Virus record (IMG/VR): IMGVR_UViG_3300037400_003033
Coordinates: 747 to 64,746 of that record
Reading direction: 5' to 3' (one strand)
Source: a virus
Lineage: Duplodnaviria; Caudoviricetes
Length of the DNA stretch: 64,000 nucleotides
The position numbers were made by a program, and so were the translations under genes. Shown here piece after piece: positions 83-52,755 of this stretch. The notes under the pieces are model-generated. The model was not told the origin of the DNA and searched no databases. It saw only the letters and a program-made list of their open reading frames with translations. The first letter of the stretch is position 1; each line of letters opens with the position of its first letter.

Positions 83-850
83 ATGAGTAGAAGCTTTAAG
101 AAAAAACCTTATCATTCTATTTGCAAATCTAGAGGCGATAAATGGTGTCGCCAACAGTATCATAAAGAACGCAGACAGAAAGATAGGAGATTGTGTAAAG
201 AAATGGAAGGTCGTATTGATAAAGAACTTCTTTACAATGATCGTTGCTTTCTTTGCACAAAAGATGGTGTTCAGCCTGAAGAAAAGTTTATCAACGAAAA
301 CATTGATTATTCTTTGAGATTCGCTGATAAATGGGGTTGGTCATCAGATGGAGGAAATTACTATTGGGGCGGCAAAGATGAATACCGCAGAGATTTTGAA
401 AGACAAATCTTTGGCTTAGATTATAAGTATGGTATTAAGCGTCAGTCCCTTTGGGAAAAATACAAGGATTACGTTGATTTGGTTTATAATGAAGATAAGC
501 CACTTTATACAGTAGTTCTTAAAAGAGTAGTTATAGAAAAAGTAAATTGGGGTTTTTACATGCCTTGGAGTTCTGAATTTGCAGGTAAACGCAAAGAAGA
601 AAAGAAGTATATAACTACTGAGATTTATCCTCCAAAATATAAGCCTGAAGAAGGTTGGGAGATAATTCATTGGTGGAAACGAAAAAATTATCTTCTTAGT
701 CTTTCTAATTGGGATTTGTTTGGGTTTTTGTTTAGAAGTAGAATTATTCCGCTTAATTTCAAAAACGAAAAACAATTGGTTGATTGGTTCAGAGAAAACG
801 AAGAAACAATCATTGAAAAATGGATGAGAGCTTTCTTGTTGAGAAAGTAA
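83..850 (+). CDS. Hypothetical phage protein (255 aa, basic N-terminus)
   Basis: ORF with AGGAG RBS; no recognised motif. Confidence 0.8.
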   Translation: MSRSFKKKPYHSICKSRGDKWCRQQYHKERRQKDRRLCKEMEGRIDKELLYNDRCFLCTKDGVQPEEKFINENIDYSLRFADKWGWSSDGGNYYWGGKDEYRRDFERQIFGLDYKYGIKRQSLWEKYKDYVDLVYNEDKPLYTVVLKRVVIEKVNWGFYMPWSSEFAGKRKEEKKYITTEIYPPKYKPEEGWEIIHWWKRKNYLLSLSNWDLFGFLFRSRIIPLNFKNEKQLVDWFRENEETIIEKWMRAFLLRK

Positions 851-852
851 TC

Positions 853-881
853 TTGACAAAAAATAATTTGTGTTTTATAAT
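853..881 (+). promoter_or_regulatory. Sigma70-type promoter for leader 1 / tRNA cluster 1
   Basis: TTGACA (853-858), 17 nt, TATAAT (876-881). Confidence 0.9.
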
Positions 882-913
882 ATAGTCACAAGTTAAATTA
901 AAAGGAAAACAAA

Positions 914-1012
914 ATGAAAAATTCTTGGAATAATTACAGTGCAGATTCTCTCATTATTGCGACACTTAATAGTGGCGTATCGTATGAACCTGCCTATGAT
1001 CCAAGAACGTGA
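914..1012 (+). CDS. Leader peptide 1 (32 aa, MKNSWNNYSADSLIIATLNSGVSYEPAYDPRT)
   Basis: AAGGA RBS, ATG 914, TGA 1010-1012; between promoter and terminator ahead of tRNA cluster; not in ORF track. Confidence 0.8.
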   Translation: MKNSWNNYSADSLIIATLNSGVSYEPAYDPRT

Positions 1013-1066
1013 CGGAAGCTGAGTTTATTATATAAAGGCTTCTGACGCAAATCAGAAGCCTTTTTT
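1013..1066 (+). terminator. Attenuator 1: intrinsic terminator with overlapping antiterminator
   Basis: AAAGGCTTCTGA-cgcaaa-TCAGAAGCCTTT plus T run (1034-1066); CGGAAGCT (1013-1020) can pair with GGCTTCTG (1037-1044). Confidence 0.8.
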
Positions 1067-1071
1067 ATTTT

Positions 1072-1154
1072 CGGTTCGTGGTGAAATTGGCAGCACACGC
1101 TAGACTTAGGATCTAGTGCCGCGAGGCGTGAGAGTTCGAGTCTCTCCGAGCCGA
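1072..1154 (+). tRNA. tRNA-Leu(TAG)
   Basis: Cloverleaf, CTAGA-CTTAGGA-TCTAG anticodon arm, long variable arm, GTTCGAGTC T-loop. Confidence 0.95.
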
Positions 1155-1163
1155 CTAACATTT

Positions 1164-1236
1164 GGGATATTGGTAAAATGGTGCATACGCCTGACTGTCA
1201 CTCAGGAGAGCGCGGGTTCAATTCTCGCATATCCCG
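1164..1236 (+). tRNA. tRNA-Asp(GTC)
   Basis: GGGATAT/ATATCCC acceptor; CCTGA-CTGTCAC-TCAGG. Confidence 0.95.
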
Positions 1237-1244
1237 CTACTTAT

Positions 1245-1329
1245 TGGTAGGTGTGCCGAATGGCTGAAGGCAGCGGACTGTAAATCCGTGACATCAGAAA
1301 CGTTGGGGGTTCGAGTCCCTCCCTGCCAA
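1245..1329 (+). tRNA. tRNA-Tyr(GTA)
   Basis: TGGTAGG/CCTGCCA acceptor; GCGGA-CTGTAAA-TCCGT; long variable arm. Confidence 0.95.
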
Positions 1330-1338
1330 CTAAAATTT

Positions 1339-1409
1339 GGGTTAGTAGTAAAATGGTTATACAGCGGACTGTTAATCCGTAGACGCAGGTTCAATTCCTG
1401 CCTAGCCCG
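1339..1409 (+). tRNA. tRNA-Asn(GTT)
   Basis: GGGTTAG/CTAGCCC; GCGGA-CTGTTAA-TCCGT. Confidence 0.95.
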
Positions 1410-1415
1410 CTTTAT

Positions 1416-1488
1416 CTGTGTGTGGGAGAGCGGTTAATCCACTTGTTTTGGGAACAAGGCTTCGTAGGTTCGAGTCCTACCATACAGA
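1416..1488 (+). tRNA. tRNA-Pro(TGG)
   Basis: CTGTGTG/CATACAG; CTTGT-TTTGGGA-ACAAG. Confidence 0.92.
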
Positions 1489-1593
1489 CTACCCCCGAGT
1501 TGGGCGGGATTAGGTATACAATACCCAACGACAATTACTCTTTGCAAAGAGAGTGCGGTCTTTCACATTCTACCTAATGAATGTGAGCATTTT

Positions 1594-1681
1594 GGAGTAT
1601 TGAGTTAGCGGCTATACGGGCGGTCTTGAAAACCGTTGACATGCGATGAGCGTGGCGCAAGTTCGAGTCTTGCATACTCCG
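1594..1681 (+). tRNA. tRNA-Ser(TGA)
   Basis: GGAGTAT/ATACTCC; GCGGT-CTTGAAA-ACCGT; long variable arm. Confidence 0.95.
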
Positions 1682-1813
1682 CTAAGATTAAAGCGCCTTT
1701 GATGGGATTCTCTAATTAGCCCATCAATTAAAACTAAATGGCAACGCGCTAGTTAGATGTATAAGTTGAGCATTTGGTAAGCAAAGGTTCTGCAAGGTCG
1801 CCTTTGGTTTTTT

Positions 1814-1887
1814 GGGACGGTAGTTCAATTGGCTAGAATACGTGATTTGTAATCATGAGGTTGGGGGTTCGATTCCCTCGCCTTCCG
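1814..1887 (+). tRNA. Atypical tRNA: TGT (Thr) anticodon on a tRNA-Ala-like body, imperfect acceptor stem
   Basis: 5' part identical to the tRNA at 1984 except anticodon TGT vs TGC; acceptor GGGACGG/GCCTTCC with G3-U70 and two mismatches. Confidence 0.65.
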
Positions 1888-1983
1888 AAAAAATGACTCC
1901 CCGTTTCTTGCGCAGAAACTTGAATGAGTAAAAATCGAAAGGTTTAACCGAACTTTATTCTAGGTAAAGATGTAGGTAATTTT

Positions 1984-2057
1984 GGGACGGTAGTTCAATT
2001 GGCTAGAATACGTGATTTGCAATCATGAGGTTGGGAGTTCGATGCTCCCCCGCTCCA
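1984..2057 (+). tRNA. tRNA-Ala(TGC)
   Basis: CGTGA-TTTGCAA-TCATG; G3-U70 pair; A73. Confidence 0.9.
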
Positions 2058-2063
2058 CTAAAT

Positions 2064-2219
2064 CCAAGCGTAACAGTTTGGGGCGTTTGGTTAATGAAGT
2101 ATGTTAGATCTTTTCGGGCAAACTGAACCGATACGTTTACACTCGGCAGTAATAACATCGAGGAGTGCAAACGGAACAAAACTAACTAGTCGTATGACGT
2201 CTGCGACGATAAACCCGAA
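2064..2219 (+). ncRNA. Putative structured ncRNA, unknown class
   Basis: Helices CCAAGCG/CGTTTGG, TTCGGG/CCCGAA enclosing CGTTTACACTC/GAGTGCAAACG. Confidence 0.45.
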
Positions 2220-2231
2220 CACCTTTTTTAT

Positions 2232-2302
2232 GGGCCGTAGATGGCGAGGTGCCATGTCTCTTTTGCAAGGAGAATTAGCGGGTTCGACTCCCAACGTGTC
2301 CA
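2232..2302 (+). tRNA. Atypical tRNA-Ala(TGC)-like element
   Basis: TCTCT-TTTGCAA-GGAGA; GTTCGACTC T-loop; bulged acceptor with G3-U70 and A73; D arm ATGGC/GCCAT. Confidence 0.55.
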
Positions 2303-2347
2303 CTAAACTAACATCTTAAAAAAGTTAATATTATTGAGGATTTTAAT

Positions 2348-2719
2348 ATGTTAGATAAAAAACAAGCAGAGAAAATAAGTCAATGGACAAACCATCAGCA
2401 AGTGCTGATGAAGTATGGACAATTTGCAAAATCTTCTTTAACAAAAGAAGAAGTTAAGACTCTTCGCCCTGAAAGAGACGAAAAGTTTATTAACAGTGTT
2501 ATCCTTACACCTTGTGTTATTTGTATGACACCTAATGAAACAGAAGACAGATTCTATCCAGAATTTTGGCTTCAAGTAAAAGGATGGTACGGACAAGACA
2601 AATCTTGGGTATGTTTTTCTCCTAATGGAAAGGAAGAGATAAAAACATTTTTGAAGATTGCTAAAAAACATCTTTCTTCTGCTACAATTAAAGAGGAAGT
2701 AAATTACTTCCCTTACTAA
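2348..2719 (+). CDS. Hypothetical protein with C-terminal YFPY tag (putative head-packaged)
   Basis: GAGGA RBS; ends IKEEVNYFPY; AAGTTAA motif upstream. Confidence 0.85.
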   Translation: MLDKKQAEKISQWTNHQQVLMKYGQFAKSSLTKEEVKTLRPERDEKFINSVILTPCVICMTPNETEDRFYPEFWLQVKGWYGQDKSWVCFSPNGKEEIKTFLKIAKKHLSSATIKEEVNYFPY

Positions 2720-2724
2720 TTTTT

Positions 2725-2808
2725 GGAAGTGTGGCTGAATTGGCAAAAGCACCAACCTGCTAAGTTGGGTACCTTCGGGTAATGCACGGTCGGAACGTGT
2801 CACTTCCG
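2725..2808 (+). tRNA. tRNA-Ser(GCT), non-canonical T-loop
   Basis: GGAAGTG/CACTTCC; CCAAC-CTGCTAA-GTTGG; T-loop GTCGGAA. Confidence 0.88.
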
Positions 2809-2812
2809 TATA

Positions 2813-2872
2813 GGCAAAAAGAGTTCCTATTTAAAGAGAAATTGGGTTATTTCACAGTAATACTCTTCGCCA
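2813..2872 (+). ncRNA. Small RNA motif copy A (GGCAAAA..GTTCCTAT..TCGCCA)
   Basis: Shares ends and a covarying helix with copy at 4782-4843. Confidence 0.5.
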
Positions 2873-2877
2873 ATTAT

Positions 2878-2950
2878 GCGTTATTAGTGTTAGCGGCTAG
2901 CACGGCTGCCCTCCAAGCAGCAAGCCTCAGTTCGAATCTGTGATAGCGCT
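2878..2950 (+). tRNA. tRNA-Gly(TCC)
   Basis: GCGTTAT/ATAGCGC; GCTGC-CCTCCAA-GCAGC; U73. Confidence 0.92.
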
Positions 2951-3056
2951 CTAAGTGGTACTCTTAGAAATAAGAGCATTGGGAAAGCTTCTAAGGTGCA
3001 GAGCCTTAGCGGAACGGTTAAGACAATATGTGGGGATTCATAGACCGTTCGTTGAT

Positions 3057-3130
3057 GGGAGTGTGGCTACAATGGTACAGCAGCGGTCTCCAAAACCGCC
3101 ATTCTGCACGTTCGAATCGTGCCGCTCTCG
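3057..3130 (+). tRNA. tRNA-Trp(CCA)
   Basis: GGGAGTG/CGCTCTC; GCGGT-CTCCAAA-ACCGC. Confidence 0.93.
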
Positions 3131-3134
3131 TAGA

Positions 3135-3163
3135 TTGACAAAATTTTACTTTCGTGGTAAAAT
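3135..3163 (+). promoter_or_regulatory. Sigma70-type promoter, extended -10
   Basis: TTGACA-17-TAAAAT with TG at -15/-14. Confidence 0.85.
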
Positions 3164-3206
3164 TAAGCCATAAGGAAAACAAGTATTCCTTTAACCAAAA
3201 ATACTT

Positions 3207-3460
3207 GCGGTTGTAAGACCTAAGAAACCCTTTGCTTGTTTGGGTGGTGAGAAACAGGTCGCGCCCTAGCGTAGCAGGCGTTATGTGTAATCGTAAACAC
3301 TTCGGAGGAATTGGTTGTCCCAACGTTAGTATAAGCGGCTGGTTACCGTAAAACCATTATTTTATAAAACAATTCAGCTTCTAGTGGCTAACGCACAAAT
3401 CTCTGTTAGCGTTCCTACTTTAACGATAGGTAGGCAAGACCTTCGGCAAATTACAATTCG
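3207..3460 (+). ncRNA. Putative large multibranch ncRNA, unknown class
   Basis: Closing TTGTAA/TTACAA helix and at least six internal hairpins; no ORF with RBS; directly after a promoter. Confidence 0.55.
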
Positions 3461-3481
3461 GTAAAGTTGCCAAACTTTTAT

Positions 3482-3569
3482 GGGTTAGTCAGTTAATATG
3501 GACTAAGCTCCGCCAATGAAAACCTACAATGGACGGGCGGGAATGTGGGTTCAAGCCCCATCTAATCCA
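3482..3569 (+). ncRNA. tRNA-like RNA with Ala-type acceptor and no canonical anticodon loop
   Basis: GGGTTAG/CTAATCC (G3-U70), A73, T arm GTGGG-TTCAAGC-CCCAT, CCGCC/GGCGG stem around a 21-nt loop. Confidence 0.65.
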
Positions 3570-3639
3570 TCTTATTACACTAAAAAATGTATAGTAGGAG
3601 GATACTATACTTGGCAGGTTAGAAATAATCTGCCATCAT

Positions 3640-3712
3640 GGTTCTTAGGACAAAAAGGTTGAGTCGCCACCCTTTCAAGGTGGAGGAGTGGGTTCGATCC
3701 CCGCAAGAACTA
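3640..3712 (+). tRNA. tRNA-Glu(TTC)
   Basis: GGTTCTT/AAGAACT; CCACC-CTTTCAA-GGTGG. Confidence 0.9.
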
Positions 3713-3936
3713 TCGGGAGAAAATCCAATAAGTCGCTCGGAGTAATCGACGAAAATTACGCGCGTTAAAGTAGTTGATGAATTATACGAGAGTGCTACCC
3801 TGATTAAAGGTAGTGGTGGAAGTTGTCGGCGGATAACGTTCATGCCACCTAAATAAAGGCTTACGCAAACCCTTAAGGGATAAGCCAGAAAATGATAAAG
3901 GTATACTGTAAGTTTCACCACACAGGACTTTCCCTT
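3713..3936 (+). ncRNA. Putative structured ncRNA, unknown class
   Basis: Hairpins GTCG/CGAC, CTACC/GGTAG, GGTGG/CCACC, GGCTTA/TAAGCC. Confidence 0.45.
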
Positions 3937-4012
3937 CGAGGTGTATCCCCTCACTCTGATAAGGTGTTGAAAGGGTAGTTGGTTCAGGCAGGTTCAACTC
4001 CTGCGACCTCGA
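3937..4012 (+). tRNA. Atypical tRNA-Ile(GAT)-like element lacking a D arm
   Basis: CGAGGTG/GACCTCG acceptor, CACT-CTGATAA-GGTG, T arm GCAGG-TTCAACT-CCTGC, CTA trailer. Confidence 0.55.
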
Positions 4013-4046
4013 CTAAACCCATTAAGCGATTGGGTAAACACATCGC

Positions 4047-4075
4047 TTGACAAATTTCATTCTTTATGATAAGAT
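4047..4075 (+). promoter_or_regulatory. Sigma70-type promoter
   Basis: TTGACA-17-TAAGAT with extended TG. Confidence 0.75.
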
Positions 4076-4098
4076 AATTACATAAAGAATTTATTCGT

Positions 4099-4175
4099 TT
4101 CGGGTTGGAGCACTGGTTGTGGCTCACCAGCCTCATAAGCTGGACATCGGGACTGTTCGATTCGGTCACCCGAGA
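4099..4175 (+). tRNA. tRNA-Met/Ile2 (CAT)
   Basis: TTCGGGT/ACCCGAG; CCAGC-CTCATAA-GCTGG; lacks the three G-C anticodon-stem pairs of initiators. Confidence 0.85.
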
Positions 4176-4227
4176 CCTTGCTAGATAACTTAGTAAAGAA
4201 GTATTGCGGGGATAGGCTCCCGACGAG

Positions 4228-4298
4228 AAGGAAATGGTGTAAGAGTAACACAGTAGCCTGGGGGGCTAACGTTTCGGATTTACGACCCGATTTCCGAG
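4228..4298 (+). tRNA. Degenerate tRNA-Pro(GGG)-like element
   Basis: D arm GTGT/ACAC, TAGC-CTGGGGG-GCTA, non-canonical T-loop TTTACGA, 5-bp acceptor. Confidence 0.45.
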
Positions 4299-4323
4299 GG
4301 CTAGTTGATTAAGTTATCGAACT

Positions 4324-4500
4324 TGCTACACGAAGAAAGTGTTGTCTGACTTTTATTGGACAATCGGTCACCGTCTTTTATCAGACCCTGATGGTAGCAT
4401 TTTACGACAACCTGAATAGGCGGTGAATTGTGGTTGTCATTGTCTAGAAATGGCGGTTGAAGACCTTAAAAGAGAAGTGGCTTTGCCACTTCTTATCGCC
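4324..4500 (+). ncRNA. Putative structured ncRNA, unknown class
   Basis: TGCTAC/GTAGCA, GACAAC/GTTGTC, AGAAGTGGC/GCCACTTCT helices. Confidence 0.4.
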
Positions 4501-4533
4501 CGCTTACAAGTTAATTTTATAGGAGAAAAGAAT

Positions 4534-4638
4534 ATGTTTACAACAGTATTTACCAAGACAGTTAAAACTACTCATAAACAGCACACAGTCTTTATGTGTA
4601 AACATATTGCTGAGTCTTCAGGAGAAAATATCAAGTGA
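4534..4638 (+). CDS. Leader peptide 2 (34 aa, MFTTVFTKTVKTTHKQHTVFMCKHIAESSGENIK)
   Basis: AGGAG RBS then ATG 4534 (track ORF 4423-4638 is over-extended); followed by terminator and tRNA cluster 2. Confidence 0.85.
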   Translation: MFTTVFTKTVKTTHKQHTVFMCKHIAESSGENIK

Positions 4639-4667
4639 CGATGTAGAAAAAACTTGTATTTTGTTTT

Positions 4668-4699
4668 GAAGGCTTAGTAGAAATACTAAGCCTTTTTTT
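4668..4699 (+). terminator. Attenuator 2 terminator (antiterminator partner at 4608-4619)
   Basis: AAGGCTTAGTA-gaaa-TACTAAGCCTT plus T run; TGCTGAGTCTTC pairs 12 bp with GAAGGCTTAGTA. Confidence 0.85.
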
Positions 4700-4706
4700 A
4701 TTTTAT

Positions 4707-4777
4707 CCGCAGGTTGCATAATGGTAGTGCTTTGGACTGAAGATCCAAAAGTTGGGGTTCGATTCCCTGTCTGCGGG
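4707..4777 (+). tRNA. tRNA-Phe(GAA)
   Basis: CCGCAGG/TCTGCGG; TTGGA-CTGAAGA-TCCAA. Confidence 0.9.
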
Positions 4778-4781
4778 CTAT

Positions 4782-4843
4782 GGCAAAAGGTGTTCCTATG
4801 CTGATGAAGCAATACACTGTTAATGTATCTATACACCTCGCCA
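4782..4843 (+). ncRNA. Small RNA motif copy B
   Basis: Related to 2813-2872; has ATACA-CTGTTAA-TGTAT hairpin with an anticodon-like loop. Confidence 0.5.
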
Positions 4844-4848
4844 AATTT

Positions 4849-4919
4849 GCTGAGTGGTAGGACGGCTCCTATTCCCCCTCATAAAGGGAAGAAACTTTGG
4901 TCGGCACAAAGATTCAGTA
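4849..4919 (+). tRNA. Atypical tRNA (CAT anticodon; Met or Ile2), non-canonical T-loop
   Basis: GCTGAGT/ATTCAGT; loop CTCATAA; T arm CTTTG-GTCGGCA-CAAAG. Confidence 0.6.
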
Positions 4920-4922
4920 TAC

Positions 4923-4996
4923 GGGCTCATAGCTCAATTGGATAGAGCAACGCCCTTTTAAGGCGTGGGTTCCCAGTTCAATCCTGGGTGGGCTCA
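4923..4996 (+). tRNA. tRNA-Lys(TTT)
   Basis: Canonical cloverleaf; ACGCC-CTTTTAA-GGCGT. Confidence 0.95.
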
Positions 4997-5003
4997 TTTG
5001 CAT

Positions 5004-5075
5004 TTCTCCGTGGTGTAATCGGTAGCACAAGGCACTCTGGATGCCTTGGTTTGGGTTCGAGTCCTAGCGGAGGAA
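5004..5075 (+). tRNA. tRNA-Gln(CTG)
   Basis: AGGCA-CTCTGGA-TGCCT. Confidence 0.93.
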
Positions 5076-5078
5076 TAT

Positions 5079-5151
5079 GTGAGTATGGTATAATGGATAG
5101 TGCCTTTGGCTACGAACCAAATGAACGGGAGTTCGATTCTCTCTACTCACG
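5079..5151 (+). tRNA. tRNA-Arg(ACG)
   Basis: GTGAGTA/TACTCAC; TTTGG-CTACGAA-CCAAA. Confidence 0.93.
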
Positions 5152-5157
5152 CAATTT

Positions 5158-5229
5158 CGTTCTCTAACTCAATGGTAGAGTGCCGCCCTTACAAGACGGA
5201 GGTTGTAGGTTCAAGTCCTACGGGAACGA
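5158..5229 (+). tRNA. tRNA-Val(TAC)
   Basis: CGTTCTC/GGGAACG; loop CTTACAA. Confidence 0.93.
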
Positions 5230-5231
5230 CT

Positions 5232-5304
5232 GTATCCATAGTGTTAGCGGTTAGCACAAAAGATTGTGGATCTTTTAGGATGGGTTCGAATCCCATTGGA
5301 CACA
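5232..5304 (+). tRNA. tRNA-His(GTG), no encoded G-1:C73
   Basis: AAAGA-TTGTGGA-TCTTT; base -1 is T, base 73 is A. Confidence 0.9.
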
Positions 5305-5308
5305 CTAT

Positions 5309-5380
5309 CGGCTATTAGCTCAACGGTAGAGCAGCACACTCTTAATGTGAATGTTGTAGGTTCAAATCCTATATAGCTGA
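5309..5380 (+). tRNA. tRNA-Lys(CTT)
   Basis: CGGCTAT/ATAGCTG; loop CTCTTAA. Confidence 0.92.
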
Positions 5381-5390
5381 CTTATTTTAT

Positions 5391-5463
5391 GCCGTCATAG
5401 CTCAATTGGTAGAGCACCTGACTTGTAATCAGGGGGTTGTAGGTTCGAGACCTATTGGCGGCT
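5391..5463 (+). tRNA. tRNA-Thr(TGT)
   Basis: GCCGTCA/TGGCGGC; CCTGA-CTTGTAA-TCAGG. Confidence 0.95.
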
Positions 5464-5466
5464 CAA

Positions 5467-5537
5467 TGCTCGCGACATTGCTGGGTAGTGGCTGGTCTGC
5501 AAAACCAAGAGGCACGGTTCGATTCCGTGGCGGGCTT
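5467..5537 (+). tRNA. tRNA-Cys(GCA)
   Basis: loop CTGCAAA; T arm CACGG-TTCGATT-CCGTG. Confidence 0.85.
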
Positions 5538-5541
5538 TCTC

Positions 5542-5570
5542 TTGACTTTTTAATCCTTTCTTGATATAAT
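5542..5570 (+). promoter_or_regulatory. Sigma70-type promoter
   Basis: TTGACT-17-TATAAT. Confidence 0.8.
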
Positions 5571-5601
5571 ATAATAAATCTTAACATTCAGGGGTAAAAT
5601 T

Positions 5602-6042
5602 ATGAGTAATGCTTATAACGATTGGAAAAAGGATATGGAATCATATACCAAGTTTTTCAAAAGGGGCGATAAAGCATTTAAGGGTATTTGCTATAAAGAT
5701 GATTATTGCACTGACGGAATGAATTACGAATTCTGTGATTTGTTGGTAAAGGATGTTGTTGTTCACAAACAGATTACACATACTGAAAAACTTCCACCAC
5801 TTGAAGAAGAAAAATTAGCAAATTTTGAAGACACTTTCAAAGTTCTTATTGTTCAAGTTGGAACCTCTTCAAGAAATCCTGATGGAACCTATGACGAGCA
5901 TTATGAAAAAACTCTTTATGTTTTCCATAACGATTGGTTAATGTCAGACGGAAAAGATTTGTTTGTTGTTGACGAACACTACATTAAAGAGTGGACTGAA
6001 ATCACTGAGCAGGAGTATGTTAAGATAAATAAAGGAGATTAA
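5602..6042 (+). CDS. Hypothetical protein
   Basis: 146-aa ORF after promoter. Confidence 0.8.
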   Translation: MSNAYNDWKKDMESYTKFFKRGDKAFKGICYKDDYCTDGMNYEFCDLLVKDVVVHKQITHTEKLPPLEEEKLANFEDTFKVLIVQVGTSSRNPDGTYDEHYEKTLYVFHNDWLMSDGKDLFVVDEHYIKEWTEITEQEYVKINKGD

Positions 6043-7738: not shown

Positions 7739-8037
7739 TGACAATTGGTGCAGAATTGAGAGCCATTAGGGATGGTGCAGTAGAAGATACCAAACAGGAA
7801 ATAAAAGATTGGTTTGATGAGCACATGGATGAACTAAAGGGCGCGGCTCTTGGTGGAGCTGATTGCATTGTATATAACGACGAAGAAACTTTCAAATTCT
7901 TTGAAAAATTGTTTAATGAAAATGAAATTATATTATCTGATTTCTGTTCTGAACAATCAATTGAAGTTGAGTTTAGTTGGACAGAACAAGAAATAGTAAT
8001 TTCTTGGAATGAAATGTTTACGGAGGAACCAAAATGA
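7738..8037 (+). CDS. Hypothetical acidic protein
   Basis: TAATG coupling, GGAGG RBS. Confidence 0.8.
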   Translation: MTIGAELRAIRDGAVEDTKQEIKDWFDEHMDELKGAALGGADCIVYNDEETFKFFEKLFNENEIILSDFCSEQSIEVEFSWTEQEIVISWNEMFTEEPK

Positions 8038-8393
8038 TTGGAAGAGAAGCATTCAAAAAAATTGTAGAACTTTATAAAAAGTTCGATAAGAAAACCGACG
8101 ATTTTAATACCAAGTTAGAAAATCTGCTTAATACAGATTTTGAATCAGATAAGCCAATCTATGATGGTTCTTGTTGGTTATATTGGCCTATTGACGGTGT
8201 AAGACAGATGCTTAAAGAAGTTCTCATAGATTGCGGCGAAACAGAAGAAGGAGCATCTTGGTGGTTGTGGGAAAATGACTTTACATTCCCAACAGAAATT
8301 GGTCTTAATGGAGAAGAATTTGAAATCAACTCTATTGATGACGCTTACGATTACTTTGTAAAGTTGAATGAACTTAAAGAGAAGGAGAAATAA
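8034..8393 (+). CDS. Hypothetical protein
   Basis: ATGA overlap, GGAGG RBS. Confidence 0.8.
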   Translation: MIGREAFKKIVELYKKFDKKTDDFNTKLENLLNTDFESDKPIYDGSCWLYWPIDGVRQMLKEVLIDCGETEEGASWWLWENDFTFPTEIGLNGEEFEINSIDDAYDYFVKLNELKEKEK

Positions 8394-9247
8394 TGCCTAA
8401 TCATGTTCAAAATGTTTTAACGTTCAGTTCAAGAGAAAGTCTTGAAAAAGTTATGAACGCTTTAAAGCCAGGCTGGACAGAAGAAGACGGATTTAGGTTT
8501 GAATGGATTGTTCCATTTCCAAAGACCAAAGAAGAATGTCCACAAGAATACATTTGTGAAGATCCAGCTGCGGCTCATATACAAGCAGATACTGAAAGAC
8601 CTTGGCTAAATTGGTATGAATTTCAGTGTAACGAGTGGGGAACAAAATGGAACGCTTACGAAGTATCATTTGAAGGTAATGAGCTTTGGTTTCAGACTGC
8701 TTGGTCTCCACCAATTCCAGTTCTTGAAAAACTCGTAAATAAATTGCCTAAAGGGACTGGCATTGAATATAAATGTTCAGAAGAGCAAGGTCCATTATAT
8801 TGTGCTGAAGGCTATATCACAGATCAAAGTTTTGATTTAAATGAATTTGATGAATACTCAGATGAAGCTTACCAAATGGCTAACGACCTTTGGGGTGAGT
8901 ATTGGTATCAAGAAGAAGAAACTGGCGAATGGTTTACAGAAGATAGTCCAGGGGCATTTCTTGATGGAGATGGACAATGGCGCTTCTATAATATAGAAGA
9001 CGAAGATGCTTTTAATAAAGAAAAAGCACTTAGATTCCATCAATTATATGGTAAACCATTTGATGATATGATTGTCGAATGTGCAGAAAGTACAAACATT
9101 AAATTCTTGGAAGAAACTTTCGGGTTTGTTCGTATTTCAGAAAATGAATATAAATTTAATATTGATAACTATGTTAATTCTTTCGATGAGGCAGAGCACG
9201 TTCAGAATTTTAGCCAAGAGTCACTTGACAAAGAAGAAATAGCATGA
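8393..9247 (+). CDS. DUF1281/YubB-like ferredoxin-fold protein
   Basis: MPNHVQN start, WGTKWNA and FQTAWSPP motifs. Confidence 0.75.
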   Translation: MPNHVQNVLTFSSRESLEKVMNALKPGWTEEDGFRFEWIVPFPKTKEECPQEYICEDPAAAHIQADTERPWLNWYEFQCNEWGTKWNAYEVSFEGNELWFQTAWSPPIPVLEKLVNKLPKGTGIEYKCSEEQGPLYCAEGYITDQSFDLNEFDEYSDEAYQMANDLWGEYWYQEEETGEWFTEDSPGAFLDGDGQWRFYNIEDEDAFNKEKALRFHQLYGKPFDDMIVECAESTNIKFLEETFGFVRISENEYKFNIDNYVNSFDEAEHVQNFSQESLDKEEIA

Positions 9248-9277: not shown

Positions 9278-9733
9278 ATGCTTACAAACGAAAAACTTGA
9301 AGAAATTGGCAAAGAATATTTGTCTGCTATTGGAGATATTCCAGCAGAAATCCTTGTAAAAGCAGAAGGAAAAGTTCAGTTGGATAATGGTACTGAATTT
9401 GAAGTTAATGGAGTTTTATTTTCTGTAGGAAAATTTCCTTACTCACCATATCCACACTTAGCAGTACATCTTTCTCAGGGGGCACATGAAAGAGGCTGTG
9501 TAATTTTCTCAAAAGCAGAACACTATGGAGAAGCTTTTGATGAATACAATTTGAAAGGTGTTAAAGCAAATGCGCCTACAGTTTTTGATCTTGCTGATTT
9601 TGAAAAGTTTAAGAAAGATTTAAAAATTACAAATGAGGTTGTTAAAGAGCCTTATCTCGATCAGCTTAAAAAAATGGAAGATGATTTGTCAGAGTACAAG
9701 AAATTCTTGAAAGATGCAAAGATTGTAGAGTAA
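9278..9733 (+). CDS. Hypothetical protein
   Basis: Promoter TTGACA 9225-TATAAT 9248; AGGAG RBS. Confidence 0.8.
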   Translation: MLTNEKLEEIGKEYLSAIGDIPAEILVKAEGKVQLDNGTEFEVNGVLFSVGKFPYSPYPHLAVHLSQGAHERGCVIFSKAEHYGEAFDEYNLKGVKANAPTVFDLADFEKFKKDLKITNEVVKEPYLDQLKKMEDDLSEYKKFLKDAKIVE

Positions 9734-9776: not shown

Positions 9777-10466
9777 ATGAATTTGGATAAATTTTACTTA
9801 ACAAGTGATAGCCACTTGTTTCATAAAAATATAATTAAATATTGCAATAGACCTTACGAGTTTACTTGGGAGGCTGTTAAGCAGATGAACGAGGATATTC
9901 TTTCTCAGTTCGATAAATTGCCTGCAGGCTCAACAATTATAAACCTTGGTGATATTGCTCTTAATGGTTCTTTAACTTTCGATACACTCAAGGCTTGTAT
10001 CGACAGAATGAAGAAGAATGGCAAGAAACTTTGGATTGTCCTCGGAAATCACGATAGAGAGATGCATCTTAGAGTAAAGGATTTTAAGGGAAAATATAAC
10101 AGCCCATATGAGTTGTTTACTGCTCTTGGCTTTGATAGAGTTTTCCCATACCCAATACTTTTGGAGGATAAATTCTTGATGAGCCATGAGCCAGTATATT
10201 TGGCTCCAGGAAGTAATCTCATTAATATTTATGGTCATACTCATGACATTGATATTTCAGAGGATTATTTCTGCCACGAATGCGAGAACTTTGCTATGAT
10301 GGAAAGAGTAAAAGCCGAAGGAATTACCGAGCAGACAAATCTCGATATTGATACCGAAGCAATCTCTGATCCTACAAAGACAGTTGATTTAAAGAATTAT
10401 TTCAACGCTTGCTGGGATAAGCATCATGATATTCTTAAATTAACAGATGTGTTTACAAAATTTTAA
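9777..10466 (+). CDS. Calcineurin-like metallophosphoesterase
   Basis: SDSHLFH, LGD, GNHD, SHEP, GHTH motifs; start moved to ATG 9777 behind GGAG. Confidence 0.9.
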   Translation: MNLDKFYLTSDSHLFHKNIIKYCNRPYEFTWEAVKQMNEDILSQFDKLPAGSTIINLGDIALNGSLTFDTLKACIDRMKKNGKKLWIVLGNHDREMHLRVKDFKGKYNSPYELFTALGFDRVFPYPILLEDKFLMSHEPVYLAPGSNLINIYGHTHDIDISEDYFCHECENFAMMERVKAEGITEQTNLDIDTEAISDPTKTVDLKNYFNACWDKHHDILKLTDVFTKF

Positions 10467-46989: not shown

Positions 46990-47007
46990 CGTTATTATTT
47001 CTTATTA

Positions 47008-48090
47008 TTAGAACATAAGAAGTTCTACACATTCTTTAACTGTTCCAACGTCTGTTGTTCCAGTTTCTTTAGAAGTATCCAAAGCATCTTTCAGAGCATT
47101 GATTTTTGAAACAAGTTTTTCATCTGTAATTTTATCAAGTGCTTTATCAAGTGCTGACTTAAGAGCATCGATATCTTTATCGTCTGTAGAAAGAGAAGCG
47201 TCTGTTTCTTCTGCACCACTTTCTTCGTCTTCTGTGATAAGATCTCTTGTTTCAGAAAGCTCTTCGCTTTCTGCGATTACATCGTTAATTCTTTCAACGA
47301 TTTCTTTTCTTGATTCCTGAAGAGTTTTATTTCCAATAACTGCAAGTCCAACAAACTCTTTAAGTTTTGTGTCTTTAACAGCCAAGAAAGCAGGGTTTTC
47401 AGAAAGAAGATCTTCCATAACTGTGTAATCACCATCCATCATATCTTCAACTGCTTCCAAGAAAGTCTTTTTGAACTCTGGGTCTTTCAAGAGTTTCTCT
47501 GCTTTTGCGTTAGCGTTTGTGATGATTGTTCTGTCTTCATCTTCGTTAATGATAGATACTCTTACAGGGTCTACCCAGTTAAAGTATTTAATTGATGAAC
47601 TTGGTGATTCTGAAATAAGTGCTTCATAGTTCTTGAAGAATGGCATATTTGCTACGTCCTGGATTTCTTCATTAATACCATCAAGTTCCACATAATTGAT
47701 TACATCACTATTTTTTCCTGCAAGAGCATTTACAACACTTTCAGAGAGTTCTGTATTCTGCTCGTCAGATTCATCTTCGAAGGCTTCTGCTAAAGCTGCT
47801 GTGTCGTAAGCGTCAGCGCTGAAATATTCCCTAGCGGCGTTAGCAAATGAGTTCTCCTCTTCTACAATTTCGATTGGGTCGAAAGATTCTAATGTAAGAA
47901 CTTTTCCGTCGAAATTATAATCTGCTGTATAAAGTGCTCCTGTCTGGGTATCAGCCATAAGAACTTTGTCAGAATATGTCTCAAGAAGAACAGCATTTGC
48001 TGATTCATTTATAAGACTTCTACAAAGTTTTTCTAAATTCTTATTGGAAAAAAGTATATAATTACTAAGTTTGCTTTTTGTAAGTTCCAT
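47008..48090 (-). CDS. Acidic prohead core / scaffold-like protein
   Basis: Many L/I-x-E motifs (LINE, LLE, LISE, LSE, ITE); near portal. Confidence 0.5.
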   Translation of the reverse strand: MELTKSKLSNYILFSNKNLEKLCRSLINESANAVLLETYSDKVLMADTQTGALYTADYNFDGKVLTLESFDPIEIVEEENSFANAAREYFSADAYDTAALAEAFEDESDEQNTELSESVVNALAGKNSDVINYVELDGINEEIQDVANMPFFKNYEALISESPSSSIKYFNWVDPVRVSIINEDEDRTIITNANAKAEKLLKDPEFKKTFLEAVEDMMDGDYTVMEDLLSENPAFLAVKDTKLKEFVGLAVIGNKTLQESRKEIVERINDVIAESEELSETRDLITEDEESGAEETDASLSTDDKDIDALKSALDKALDKITDEKLVSKINALKDALDTSKETGTTDVGTVKECVELLMF

Positions 48091-48153
48091 TGTTTTCTCC
48101 TAATATAACTTAACTTTGTTGACAAAAAAAAAGATTAAAGGTATAATCACGAT

Positions 48154-48402
48154 ATGACTGTAGAAATAAACGAAGAGCAAATACCAGAACAACAATTAAA
48201 GATTTTAACGCAAACTGCGATAAGTATTTTAAAAAAGACTAAGCAACAGTATGCTTATGTTTATTCAAGAGTAGCAAACGGGCTATATGTTGGATATTTT
48301 TATTTAGACCAAGATGTTTTTAAAAATTGTTTCTTTTTTACTGATGATATAGTTAGGAATTACATGAACATTCTTCAGGCATCACCTTCGAAAGGGCTTT
48401 AA
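48154..48402 (+). CDS. Hypothetical protein
   Basis: Promoter TTGACA 48119-TATAAT 48142, ATG near predicted start site. Confidence 0.65.
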   Translation: MTVEINEEQIPEQQLKILTQTAISILKKTKQQYAYVYSRVANGLYVGYFYLDQDVFKNCFFFTDDIVRNYMNILQASPSKGL

Positions 48403-48805
48403 TTAAATCTATACTCTTTCTTTTAATAACGTTAAAATTTCCTTTTGCTATATCAATTTTATTAATTTTAAAAGGTTTTCTGTATTCCTCTTTTATTGAT
48501 AGATTTTCTACCATAATTTCAGAGTTATTTATTTCCAGAACTTTTAAAACGTCTCCTCTCTCTAATTCTTTATAAATTTCAAGCATTGGAGAGTTATCTT
48601 TTTGCAGTAATGATTTTATTTCTTGAGAAGTTGCCAATGGTGTTGTCATTACTGTTTCATTTATTACTATATTATTTTCTTTAAGATGGTCGCTAGCTGG
48701 ATACAAAGTTGAAATAGTTTCAATTATATCTTGCTCACTAATTGCTGGAACCATCTCAGTTTCGAGTCTTTTTAAAATACTATTTATCGTGTTTCTGCTG
48801 TCCAA
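48353..48805 (-). CDS. Hypothetical protein
   Basis: 150-aa ORF directly after portal. Confidence 0.7.
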   Translation of the reverse strand: MDSRNTINSILKRLETEMVPAISEQDIIETISTLYPASDHLKENNIVINETVMTTPLATSQEIKSLLQKDNSPMLEIYKELERGDVLKVLEINNSEIMVENLSIKEEYRKPFKINKIDIAKGNFNVIKRKSIDLIKALSKVMPEECSCNS

Positions 48806-48811
48806 TTTTTA

Positions 48812-50812
48812 TTACTCTTCCTCTTCACTTAACAATCTTTCTTCTGTGATTAGTTCTTCACCCTTTCTAGTTTTAACTTTTTTATAAACTGAAAATGAAT
48901 CATTAGCAAAAGAAAGACCACCAAGTTCATTTTCATAATAAAGAGCCATTCCAGAATCATTAACTGCTTCAACTTCTTCTTTAATTAATAATTCTTTAAC
49001 TTTATTTATAAACTCATTATTTGAAAGCCCTTCCTCAACTTCTTCTTTTATAAGATTTGCCTCTTTTTCTTTTTGGTATTCTTCGTAGGCTTTCATTAAT
49101 TTAGAATAATCTTCCTTATGCTCAATAAGAATGTCTTTACCGAATGCTTTTACCATTACTTTTGGAGATAACTCTTCTGTTTGAACTGACATCATAGGTG
49201 CTGGAGCTGCTCCCATATCTGTTGGAGGCATTCCGCCTGCTCCCATATCTGCTGGAGGCATTCCGCCACCCATTCCCATTCCACCCATCATATCTCCGCC
49301 CATTCCACCTTGTTGAGCAGCAAGTGAAGCCATTTCGATATCTTTTTGAAGATTGATATCTGCAATTTCCTTCTTTGACATTTTCATTACATATTTAAGA
49401 ATAAAATCTTTAGGGAATAAATTAGTTCCAAGCATTGCAGAAATAAGAGAAATCTTTTGATTAAGATATTCAATATCCATAATCTCTTTAACGTTTGAAG
49501 GTGGTGTTAATTCAATTCTGAAATTCTTTAAATCTGCTTTTTTCTTTTTCTTAAAGAAAAGTTCAACTGCAGCAATTTTTGTAAGACCTTCTTCTATATA
49601 ATACTGAATACGTTCAATAAATCTAGCGAACTTAACATCCTGCATAGCAAGAGAGCCCTTTTGACCGCCCATTGCATTTCCATCAGAAGTAAATCCTAAG
49701 AACTCAGGTGGGATATTAAGTGTCCAAAGAAGCTCATCTCTAAACATTCTAATATCATCAATATTATTAAGACCCTGGCCAGGTTGTAATGTTGTAACTT
49801 CTGTACCTGCCTGCCCTTCTCTTGTAGGAATAAAGATATCCTGAGTAACTGAAAGAGCAGCCGCAGTTTTGTTAATATTTCCTTTATCATCCATTATTTG
49901 ATTTGAACGATAATTATTCTTTATTTTCTGTACATATCTATTTGCTTCATTAGTTGAAAGATTACCGCAGTCAATTTTAAATACTCTTCTTTCTGGTACA
50001 CGAGCCAAACGATAAATCATTACTGCGTCTTCAAGCATTGTATAACGTCTATAAGTTCTTACACCTGGGTCTAACAAAGAAAGTCCATAAGGTGCAAATT
50101 TTTTATTTGAAATCTTAAAATGAACTATCTGCCAAGGCTGAAGTTTATAAACAACTTCGTGATTCTTTTCGTCTTTTTCCATTACATTAGAATAGTCTGT
50201 ATCATCAAAAGCATCAGTTCTATAAGTGTAAAAAGCAAGTCTACCGTTCTTTTCTACACGATTTACTTTATCTGTTTTTAAGTATCTTATTCTAGCAACT
50301 TGTGTTGGATGTTCATAACTATCAGGAATAATCTCATAGAAGTTATCACCAAGTTTACAGGTTTCAATAAATATAGACCAAAGTTCTTTATTAAGGTTTA
50401 ATCTTACATGGAACAAATCGTCAAGTATATTTTTTATATCTTCATCGTTTGAATAAACCTTTACAGTATTACCTTCAACGTTTTTTTGTGTTCCATCATC
50501 TGCAATTGTTTGAAGACCTCTAGACAAGAATGGACAAGCAGCCATTTCTTCGTATGTATCATAATAAGCAGCTCTATTCTCTGGCGAAAGTCTATTATTT
50601 AATGTATTATTTTGAGAACCAAAAGCATCACCAAAACTATTAATACCACCGTCATAACCAAAGTTATTAAGGTTACTTGAGAGTTCTTTTTCTTCTTTTT
50701 TTGTAACTTCCGTTTTAGTTGTTTCTGGAAGTTCATTTATCGCATCTATTTTTTGCTGTATCTGTTGTGAATGTCTTAAATCTATAAATTGTTCTTTTCC
50801 GTTTTTAATCAC
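48812..50812 (-). CDS. Portal protein (T4 gp20-like)
   Basis: PYGLSLL, LEDAVMIYRLARVPERRVFKIDCGNL, DIFIPTREG..GTEVTTL, IDDIRMFRDEL. Confidence 0.95.
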   Translation of the reverse strand: MIKNGKEQFIDLRHSQQIQQKIDAINELPETTKTEVTKKEEKELSSNLNNFGYDGGINSFGDAFGSQNNTLNNRLSPENRAAYYDTYEEMAACPFLSRGLQTIADDGTQKNVEGNTVKVYSNDEDIKNILDDLFHVRLNLNKELWSIFIETCKLGDNFYEIIPDSYEHPTQVARIRYLKTDKVNRVEKNGRLAFYTYRTDAFDDTDYSNVMEKDEKNHEVVYKLQPWQIVHFKISNKKFAPYGLSLLDPGVRTYRRYTMLEDAVMIYRLARVPERRVFKIDCGNLSTNEANRYVQKIKNNYRSNQIMDDKGNINKTAAALSVTQDIFIPTREGQAGTEVTTLQPGQGLNNIDDIRMFRDELLWTLNIPPEFLGFTSDGNAMGGQKGSLAMQDVKFARFIERIQYYIEEGLTKIAAVELFFKKKKKADLKNFRIELTPPSNVKEIMDIEYLNQKISLISAMLGTNLFPKDFILKYVMKMSKKEIADINLQKDIEMASLAAQQGGMGGDMMGGMGMGGGMPPADMGAGGMPPTDMGAAPAPMMSVQTEELSPKVMVKAFGKDILIEHKEDYSKLMKAYEEYQKEKEANLIKEEVEEGLSNNEFINKVKELLIKEEVEAVNDSGMALYYENELGGLSFANDSFSVYKKVKTRKGEELITEERLLSEEEE

Positions 50813-50893
50813 TTCGAAACCTCGATCATCTTTTCTTTAATTAACTTGACAAAAAAACTACTTAGGTGTAAACTCTTGGCAAAGGAGAATAAG

Positions 50894-51073
50894 ATGGGTT
50901 ATAATTTTAATCTTGAACAAAATGAAGCAGAACTTTTAATGAATGCTTTACAAAACCAAACAAACGGCATACTTATGAAGATACAATCTCAGTTCGCAGA
51001 ACAAACCAAGCAGCCAGAAAAAGAAGAGGATGAGTTATTAGTGGAGGATAGCGATGGCACTAAAGGAAATTAA
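50894..51073 (+). CDS. 59-aa hypothetical protein
   Basis: Promoter TTGACA 50846-TAAACT 50869; AAGGAG RBS before ATG 50894. Confidence 0.7.
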   Translation: MGYNFNLEQNEAELLMNALQNQTNGILMKIQSQFAEQTKQPEKEEDELLVEDSDGTKGN

Positions 51074-51773
51074 TGTTAGTAAAGGGTTTGAGAATTATTC
51101 CCAAAGAAACAATGAGGTTTTGCCAAGTGTTGCTTGTGGGCCAACAAATATGGTTCAGGCGTTAGAATACTCTGGTTGGGAACTTGATAAAAATAAGCTT
51201 CCAGAACTAAGTCAGCCAGAAGACAAACTTATGAAATTTACAAGAACAAATGAAACAGTTCTTAAATATTACGAAACAAAATATAAAAACATGTATAAAA
51301 ACTGGGTTGAAGAAAGCAAAAGATTAAAAGCAGATGGACAAGAAATTTGGCAAGTAGACTGTCCAAAAGCGAATGCCCCTAACGAAGTTCATGACGTAAT
51401 GAATTTTGCTACAAATGTTTTTCTTGGTTATACACAGAAAGATATAGAAGAGGGCCATTTTGCAACTTGGTTAACAAATTTTGATGAAGATTATTTAGTT
51501 GAAATGCTAAAAAGAGGTTTACCAGTTGTTACTTCTGTAAGATTTAAAGATTTTGGACACTATATCACAATTGTTGGTGCACAGTACAAAAAAGATTTAG
51601 ATAAGAACAATATTGAAAATTATATTATTGACAACACATACGGAAGATTTGATTTTAAACGCGAAGTTTATGAAAAAACAAGTGGTAATGATAACCTATT
51701 ACCAAGAAAAGAATTACTCGCAAGAGTAAGACCAGTTATGCATTGTTTCAGGAAAGGAGCAATAGTGCTATAA
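51054..51773 (+). CDS. Peptidase C39-like protein
   Basis: YSQRNN..ACGPT (Cys), GHYITIVG (His), IIDNTYG. Confidence 0.8.
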   Translation: MALKEINVSKGFENYSQRNNEVLPSVACGPTNMVQALEYSGWELDKNKLPELSQPEDKLMKFTRTNETVLKYYETKYKNMYKNWVEESKRLKADGQEIWQVDCPKANAPNEVHDVMNFATNVFLGYTQKDIEEGHFATWLTNFDEDYLVEMLKRGLPVVTSVRFKDFGHYITIVGAQYKKDLDKNNIENYIIDNTYGRFDFKREVYEKTSGNDNLLPRKELLARVRPVMHCFRKGAIVL

Positions 51774-51774
51774 T

Positions 51775-51803
51775 AAAAAGCCCTGCAAAAGCAGGGCTTT
51801 TTT
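51775..51803. terminator. Bidirectional terminator
   Basis: AAAAAGCCCTGC-aaaa-GCAGGGCTTTTTT between convergent genes. Confidence 0.9.
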
Positions 51804-51804
51804 A

Positions 51805-52749: not shown

Positions 52750-52755
52750 TATAAA

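Follow-up and report, generated by a model that had tools for sequence, protein, structure and literature searches.

The window analysed here, a stretch of 64,000 nucleotides, makes up most of a 64.7-kb metagenomic virus record with an estimated completeness of 28%. Because its relatives lie on contigs of 222-232 kb, the phage itself must be very large. Between positions 1072 and 5464 the window encodes 21 tRNA genes, the first of which, tRNA-Leu(UAG), begins at 1072. The elements upstream of this gene and the first tRNA cluster are as follows:

853-881, + strand: sigma-70 consensus promoter, TTGACA-17 nt-TATAAT, agreeing with 12 of 12 consensus positions
902-906, + strand: Shine-Dalgarno sequence AAGGA, read from the sequence, 7 nt 5' of the ATG start
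914-1012, + strand: leader ORF of 32 codons plus TGA (MKNSWNNYSADSLIIATLNSGVSYEPAYDPRT), led by the Shine-Dalgarno sequence, its translation being inferred
922-929, + strand: 5' strand of a long-range helix, UUCUUGGA, inside the translation-initiation region, pairing with 1000-1007
1000-1007, + strand: 3' strand of the long-range helix, UCCAAGAA, codons Asp-Pro-Arg, ending 2 nt 5' of the antiterminator
1009-1020, + strand: 5' strand of the putative antiterminator, with its core at 1013-1020 and outer pairs at 1009-1011 that overlap the stop codon
1034-1063, + strand: intrinsic terminator hairpin, 5' arm 1034-1045, loop 1046-1051, 3' arm 1052-1063
1061-1071, + strand: terminator U-tract, adjoining the first tRNA gene
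1072-3131, + strand: putatively gated tRNA genes, Leu(UAG), Asp, Tyr, Asn, Pro, Ser(UGA), Thr, Ala, Ser(GCU), Gly and Trp

The initial annotation had described a consensus promoter, an ORF at 914-1012, a terminator and tRNA-Leu in this order, and all four were found where it had placed them. Transcription is inferred to start near 888. The window contains 5 exact copies of the promoter pattern where 0.02 would be expected, an excess indicating that the phage really uses such promoters, and a promoter of the 853-881 type is retained in all leader-bearing relatives. The Shine-Dalgarno sequence is likewise kept in relatives and is unpaired in the fold of the nascent RNA. The terminator stem comprises 12 bp (-16.8 kcal/mol) and is followed by UUUUUUAUUUU, the U-tract ending one base 5' of the tRNA-Leu start. 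Two features required of a leader attenuator are present: promoter and regulated genes are separated by a short ORF that has a ribosome-binding site of its own (translation has not been shown), and an intrinsic terminator stands between this ORF and those genes. The leader peptide had no Pfam or PHROG match, the PHROGs search being negative for three leader peptides, and the variable sites among close variants fall at codon positions 1/2/3 in numbers of 4/3/7 (7 of 14 at the third position), which is a weak signal of coding constraint.

A promoter scan from the terminator to position 3135 found no site scoring above 9/12, so the eleven tRNA genes at 1072-3131, among which a 123-aa ORF is located, appear reachable solely via read-through of the terminator.

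Further along the tRNA array, strong promoter-like sites at 3135-3163 (11/12) and 4047-4075 (10/12), both with TG, divide it into separately driven parts. The spacer at 3164-3638 contains a weak tRNA-model match at 3482-3569 (25.8 bits, below the gathering score), 3' of the 3135-3163 promoter. A tRNA-like gene at 5466-5537 was missed by ARAGORN and matched the tRNA-Sec model weakly (29 bits); inspection by eye shows an anticodon loop of 7 nt with GCA (Cys), which would explain the Cys codon of the second leader described below. U34 is present in every four-codon-box tRNA of 1072-5464 (Leu, Pro, Ser, Thr, Ala, Gly and Val), the pattern of a minimal decoding set with a single tRNA per whole box. 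AAGTTAAAT, considered as a recurrent promoter-like motif, had 3 matches in the window where 3.35 were expected and, showing no enrichment, was discarded.

The initial annotation had further claimed that the segment directly after the stop codon can form 8 bp with the 5' arm of the terminator. Such a pairing was recovered between CGGAAGCU (1013-1020) and GGCUUCUG (1037-1044), comprising six Watson-Crick and two G-U pairs, and folding extended it by three outer pairs, in which 1009-1011 meet bases 1046-1048 of the terminator loop, so that positions 1037-1048 of the terminator have an alternative partner in the leader. The 1013-1020 region is the best complement of the terminator 5' arm within the whole 143-nt leader. 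The duplex energy in the window, -11.4 kcal/mol against -8.0 +/- 1.9 for shuffled sequences, is only marginally better than chance (p about 0.056), and the window sequence alone would not support the antiterminator claim. What raises the antiterminator above chance is the occurrence of compensatory changes and of the same stop-adjacent placement in diverged relatives, as detailed below.

When the nascent RNA ending before the terminator 3' arm was folded, each of the five variants tested gave the antiterminator a probability of 0.99. With the RNA complete, the best antiterminator-enforced fold was 0.8-4.5 kcal/mol worse than the terminator fold across five variants; for the window, the antiterminator was 2.2 kcal/mol worse than the terminator fold and separated from it by a barrier of about 10.7 kcal/mol. 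Over seven variants the barrier from antiterminator to terminator ranged from 7.0 to 11.6 kcal/mol, which by a rough estimate would make the antiterminator long-lived relative to the time the polymerase spends on the U-tract. The requirement that the antiterminator exclude the terminator and be energetically competitive with it was met, and the outcome named in the initial annotation as refuting its proposal, an antiterminator never competitive in folding, did not occur.

To place the ribosome on this RNA, it was given a footprint reaching from -15 to +13 relative to the A site, in a model that considers only geometry and no kinetics. With the A site at codons 2-29 the antiterminator probability was 0.99; it fell to 0.73 at codon 30 and 0.2 at codon 31, and was 0 at codon 32 and at the stop codon. 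Ribosome position can therefore select the fold, as a leader attenuator requires, in the footprint model and without experiment. According to the initial annotation, 1013-1020 would be masked when the ribosome is at the stop codon, and a ribosome stalled earlier would free the antiterminator, for which folding under ribosome-footprint constraints was suggested as a check; both the folding model and the comparative sequences fit this proposal. Without any ribosome the antiterminator still formed with a probability of 0.99, and nothing in the RNA competes with it, which predicts that read-through is the default of the untranslated leader and that termination needs a ribosome at the end of the ORF.

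Relatives of the locus were located via the flanking upstream gene, which encodes a 255-aa protein with 62 homologues at 40-100% identity. Loci (given here as L numbers) were taken from the contigs of these homologues, from a profile scan of metagenomes and from L002, the sole relative returned when IMG/VR was searched with the flanking-protein profile. The leader was found in L002/L010, L004, L005, L007, L008, L009, L011, L012, L013, L018, L049 and L051, and its layout is common to seven sequence-distinct relatives with flanking-gene identity down to 27%. These variants include six clearly distinct leader peptides and seven distinct post-stop segments. The leader ORF measures 28-33 codons and ends right at the antiterminator in six diverged versions. 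In L008 the leader lies further downstream, immediately 5' of tRNA-Leu, and it is missing in L003, L052, L006, L014-L016 and L050, where the tRNA array is absent or organised otherwise. Cultured relatives were sought by megablast, by tblastn of the 255-aa protein and by sensitive blastn against 50,697 phage records, but generic tRNA-Leu similarity was the only result. The flanking 255-aa protein had no PHROGs or Pfam match, and three other nearby proteins had no Pfam match. A terminator-motif scan of the viral collection matched 27 stretches, of which the one on L002's own contig alone has tRNAs behind it; the others were rejected as related units and taken for unrelated terminators.

In every variant with the terminator on its contig (L009, whose contig ends before the terminator, was left out), the best partner of the terminator arm within the leader of about 145 nt begins at +1 to +3 relative to the stop codon's first base, the exception being L018 with -4. 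The post-stop segment itself varies. That of L004, UAGGAGCU, carries a C-to-U change matched by a G-to-A change in the terminator arm; that of L013 is CAGGAGCU; and that of L005, AUUAGAAGC, is an exact 9-nt copy of the terminator 3' arm. L008 combines the segment AAAGGUAGUCUA with a different terminator stem (AGGCUCC with GGAGCCU) and the stop codon TAA. L018, whose flanking protein is 27% identical, has an antiterminator of 13 bp and -16.5 kcal/mol that was equalled in 0 of 500 shuffles. The L049 antiterminator is the 6-bp GAAGUC (p = 0.27). MAFFT misregisters the antiterminators of L005 and L018; covariation was therefore counted in the W/L004 group alone (W being the window), and the other variants were considered singly. 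In this alignable group of five distinct sequences, 98% of cells were paired over the 11 antiterminator pairs, compared with 36-49% in slid controls; two pairs had changed on both sides and four on one side with pairing kept, and covariation was greater in the antiterminator than in the terminator. A shuffle control of the covariation was weak (36 of 500), with only five distinct rows, and for this reason the argument rests mainly on the constant position of the segment despite the turnover of its sequence.

A second conserved structure joins the two ends of the ORF. In the window, the extended long-range duplex formed by 922-929 and 1000-1007 has an energy of -16.6 kcal/mol against -6.7 +/- 2.2 for shuffled sequences, none of 1000 being as good. 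An equivalent helix between the initiation region and the segment preceding the stop codon, built from different sequences, was present in all eight variants tested (p from 0/1000 to 0.037), for example UAAUGGAU with AUCCAUUA in L004, UAGAUAUGG with CCAUAUCUA in L018 and GAAUAUGGUU with AACCAUAUUU in L049. The 5' strand holds an in-frame AUG in four of five lineages, all except the window type, and this AUG was taken as the start codon in L004, L005 and L018. The long-range helix accounts for the conservation of the C-terminal codons (YDP) at the nucleotide level while the remainder of the peptide is replaced. We infer, without a test, that the helix shuts the ribosome-binding site once the ORF has been transcribed, so that only the first, polymerase-coupled ribosome is timed, and it may stack on the antiterminator.

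Several further features of the related loci were recorded. The L007 array (7990-8463) is reduced to Leu, Val, His, Lys and Thr, apparently by a deletion that fused the beginning of cluster 1 with the end of cluster 2, and its leader DNA is nearly identical to that of the window at a flanking-protein identity of just 64%, a contrast that points to mosaic recombination. L018 carries at 9515-9588 a tRNA whose UUA anticodon would decode TAA stops, the L018 leader itself ending in TGA, and four copies of tRNA-Glu(CUC) (644-1692 and 9957-10031). A tmRNA gene lies 5' of the array in L002 (5950-6352), L004 (5239-5641), L005 (6228-6629), L006 (4635-4963), L007 (6025-6354) and L018 (4012-4381), and genes for T4-type RNA ligase 1 are close by in L004 and L005; taken together, these look like a translation-maintenance locus. 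In the leader-less L003 (7745-7895) and L006 (7760-8019), the position of the leader behind the homologue of the 255-aa gene is taken by a GC-richer stretch that appears structured by eye and was not folded.

Comparison of the leader codons with the tRNAs behind the terminator revealed a match in the window, with exceptions among the relatives. The cluster-1 tRNAs serve Leu(CUN), Asp, Tyr, Asn, Pro, Ser, Thr, Ala, Gly and Trp, four-codon boxes being counted as wholly read because their tRNAs all have U34. On this basis 25 of 31 codons of the leader at 914-1012 (Leader 1) are readable by cluster-1 tRNAs against 50% expected (binomial p = 4e-4), and Leader 1 ranks first in this respect among the 188 small ORFs of the window. 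All ten cluster-1 amino acids are present in it, and the residues unserved by cluster 1 number 7 of 32 (the start Met, Lys, two Ile, Val, Glu and Arg). Its synonymous codons are rarer than expected (p = 0.02). A second leader at 4534-4638 (Leader 2) precedes a block of Phe, Lys, Gln, Arg, Val, His and Thr tRNAs together with the Cys-like tRNA at 5466-5537; this block serves 23 of its 33 codons, including 19 consecutive residues within the set (probability about 1e-9). Neither leader fits the tRNA set of the other (p = 0.99 and 0.98), and the comparison of the two on their exclusive sets gave a Fisher value of 1.3e-5.

The relatives gave a mixed picture. L005 has one leader before a 19-tRNA array, the sole strong terminator of the array being at this leader, and the peptide gains Phe, Lys, Val, Cys, His and Arg. 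The L018 leader has 27 of 30 residues in its own tRNA set (p = 0.008), and the L004 leader matches its own set at p = 0.04, with Phe, Arg, Ile and Asp lacking matching cluster tRNAs. No own-set enrichment was found in the L008 leader (p = 0.6), and the window-type leader of L007 stands ahead of the reduced array with p = 0.92. The codon match is statistically modest, since the tRNA set covers about half of all codons, and the leaders, being homologous, are not independent samples for it. A unit unrelated in sequence is found in phiCbK, a cultured Caulobacter phage, where gp083 (45 aa, L054 2541-2678) and an annotated terminator precede a Pro-Pro-Lys-Lys-Leu-Leu-Leu-Ser-Ser tRNA block. P, K, L and S make up 23 of the 44 residues of gp083 (p = 5e-5); an antiterminator was not tested for in this unit. 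The phiCbK region (L054 = 47000-53000) has annotated rho-independent terminators at 1121-1167, 2746-2770 and 4466-4503, each directly before a tRNA block.

Taken together, the parts, the two exclusive folds, the masking geometry, the conservation and the codon bias, all obtained by sequence, folding or comparison, lead us to favor, with moderate confidence, the interpretation that 853-1072 regulates a phage tRNA operon by leader-peptide attenuation, a ribosome-mediated control of transcription that is tuned to the supply of the tRNAs behind it. According to this model, host RNA polymerase would start at the consensus promoter and a ribosome would load on the 32-codon leader. A prompt ribosome, reaching the last two codons or the UGA during transcription of 1037-1071, would cover 1009-1020; with this strand covered, the terminator hairpin would form and transcription would stop at the U-tract, one base short of tRNA-Leu. 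With a ribosome delayed anywhere in codons 2-29, or none loaded at all, 1009-1020 would pair with 1037-1048, the terminator could not nucleate, and the polymerase would enter the eleven tRNA genes. Since the leader consists mostly of codons of the gated tRNAs, slow decoding of those codons is the most likely signal, and such a signal would amount to negative feedback on the phage's own tRNA supply. It is inferred that the ORF is translated, that the ribosome and the polymerase are coupled, and that read-through occurs and responds to tRNA supply; the identity of the physiological signal is likewise an inference. Tight coupling of ribosome and polymerase in particular is assumed, the host being unknown and no experiment, transcriptome or ribosome data being available for the phage.

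An attenuator need not be tuned to its tRNAs. It could be generic, reporting overall translation capacity through ribosome loading and speed, with the amino-acid match left over from ancestry or due to chance. Consistent with this, delay at any of codons 2-29, or no initiation at all, yields the antiterminator in the model; L008 lacks the codon match, in L007 it is disrupted, and several residues of the L004 leader are without a matching tRNA; and the tRNA sets are so large that q is about 0.5-0.6. Such an account does not readily explain why the compositions of Leader 1 and Leader 2 are opposite and fit their respective blocks (Fisher 1.3e-5), why Leader 1 comes first of 188 small ORFs for cluster-1-readable codons, why the composition of the L005 leader shifts along with the merged array, or why the unrelated phiCbK gp083 shows a like match, and we regard it as rather unlikely. 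Whether tuned or generic, the presence of an attenuator at 853-1072 is a conclusion that we hold with good confidence.

Two readings dispense with the attenuator. The ORF may be an ordinary small phage gene followed by an ordinary terminator, the tRNAs being expressed by leaky read-through or from unrecognised promoters, and the complementarity after the stop codon representing a 3'-end or stability structure or the remnant of a duplicated terminator arm. The ORF is listed by gene callers in several contigs, its C-terminal VSYEPAYDP is kept between the two main leader types, and the exact 9-nt copy of the terminator 3' arm in L005 is what a duplication would give. However, the peptide is without a family match, relatives differ entirely in its N-terminal two thirds yet keep the antiterminator next to the stop codon, and the long-range RNA helix accounts for the conserved C-terminal codons; moreover, the U-tract abuts tRNA-Leu and leaves no space for a further promoter, and 30 other matches to the terminator motif in the viral collection are not followed by tRNAs. 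This makes an ordinary gene improbable in our judgment. Alternatively, the timing of infection rather than the ribosome might set read-through, the ORF being incidental, with late read-through brought about by an antitermination factor, by a polymerase that the phage has modified, or by a phage-specific promoter located in the conserved ACAAGTTAAAT. The window, L004, L005 and L008 do share an 11-nt motif that lies 3' of the -10 box and 5' of the Shine-Dalgarno sequence, and L018 has at the equivalent place TATAAATA, which we take to be the T4 late-promoter consensus. Against this, AAGTTAAAT is not enriched in the window, control by timing leaves unexplained both an ORF of constant length that ends exactly at the antiterminator and the co-variation of segment and terminator, and we give it very little credence.

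A wider hypothesis can be put forward, tentatively and with more doubt than belief, in which each tRNA sub-operon of the lineage has its own codon-matched canary leader that measures decoding speed block by block, so that tRNAs are replaced on demand, the arrangement having evolved independently in unrelated phages such as phiCbK. The trigger could be, for example, host anticodon nucleases or a host shut-off that depletes tRNAs, and the leaders, if the hypothesis is true, would be translation-coupled sensors for tRNA homeostasis or counter-defence. Phage tRNA genes are usually viewed as passive cargo co-expressed with their neighbours; an attenuator ahead of them would mean that the phage gauges decoding speed and adjusts its own tRNA supply, and would bring a textbook circuit of amino-acid biosynthesis genes to a new class of targets. 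It would also bear on the question why phages carry tRNAs, whether to compensate for codon usage or to replace tRNAs lost to shut-off or tRNA-cleaving defences. A full-text literature search, which did not cover subscription-only papers, found no account of leader-peptide or attenuator control of tRNA genes, and the look-alike unit in cultured phiCbK has gone unremarked. As the element is only about 220 nt long and has a consensus sigma-70 promoter, it is directly testable in a reporter.

Amino-acid leader attenuators of enterobacteria are known from trpL, hisL, leuL and pheL and from the multivalent thrL and ilvL. The unit described here resembles them in having a promoter, a short ORF and a terminator whose 5' arm has an alternative partner that is covered by a ribosome at the end of the ORF, and in that slow decoding of chosen codons would lead to read-through; thrL and ilvL also mix several amino acids. 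It differs in its targets, which are tRNA genes instead of biosynthetic enzymes, in its sensor, which comprises 10-11 amino acids mostly occurring 1-5 times each in place of runs of a single amino acid, and in the long-range helix that closes the initiation region. Unlike in trp, no hairpin of the 1:2 type competes with the antiterminator, and the untranslated state is predicted to be read-through; the trp-type criterion of a 1:2 hairpin that hides the antiterminator in an untranslated leader, with termination as the default, is not fulfilled, and the only other conserved helix (922-929/1000-1007) excludes the antiterminator strand. Rfam detected no trp, his, leu or thr leader and no T-box, either at the gathering threshold over the whole window or at E <= 1 over 800-5700, its output in the window consisting of tRNAs and sub-threshold noise only.

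T-box riboswitches share the cell-level logic by which the state of tRNA decides between terminator and antiterminator, but they bind uncharged tRNA directly, without a ribosome, and control synthetase, transport and biosynthesis genes. Antibiotic-resistance attenuators, found by Term-seq, combine a short uORF with a terminator and an antiterminator. As in the present unit, any stall of the lead ribosome in the uORF leads to read-through and the untranslated state is not termination; theirs, however, is a stall caused by a drug and a specific nascent peptide, with a resistance protein as target, whereas decoding speed is the likely signal here and tRNAs are the target. A likeness also exists to Leader 2 (4534-4638) and to phiCbK gp083, each a small ORF with a terminator, enriched in the amino acids of the tRNA block behind it. 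Pending an experimental test, we conclude that the unit would work like a multivalent leader-peptide attenuator of the thr/ilv type, without the hairpin that makes termination the default, and in this resembles the uORF attenuators of resistance genes.
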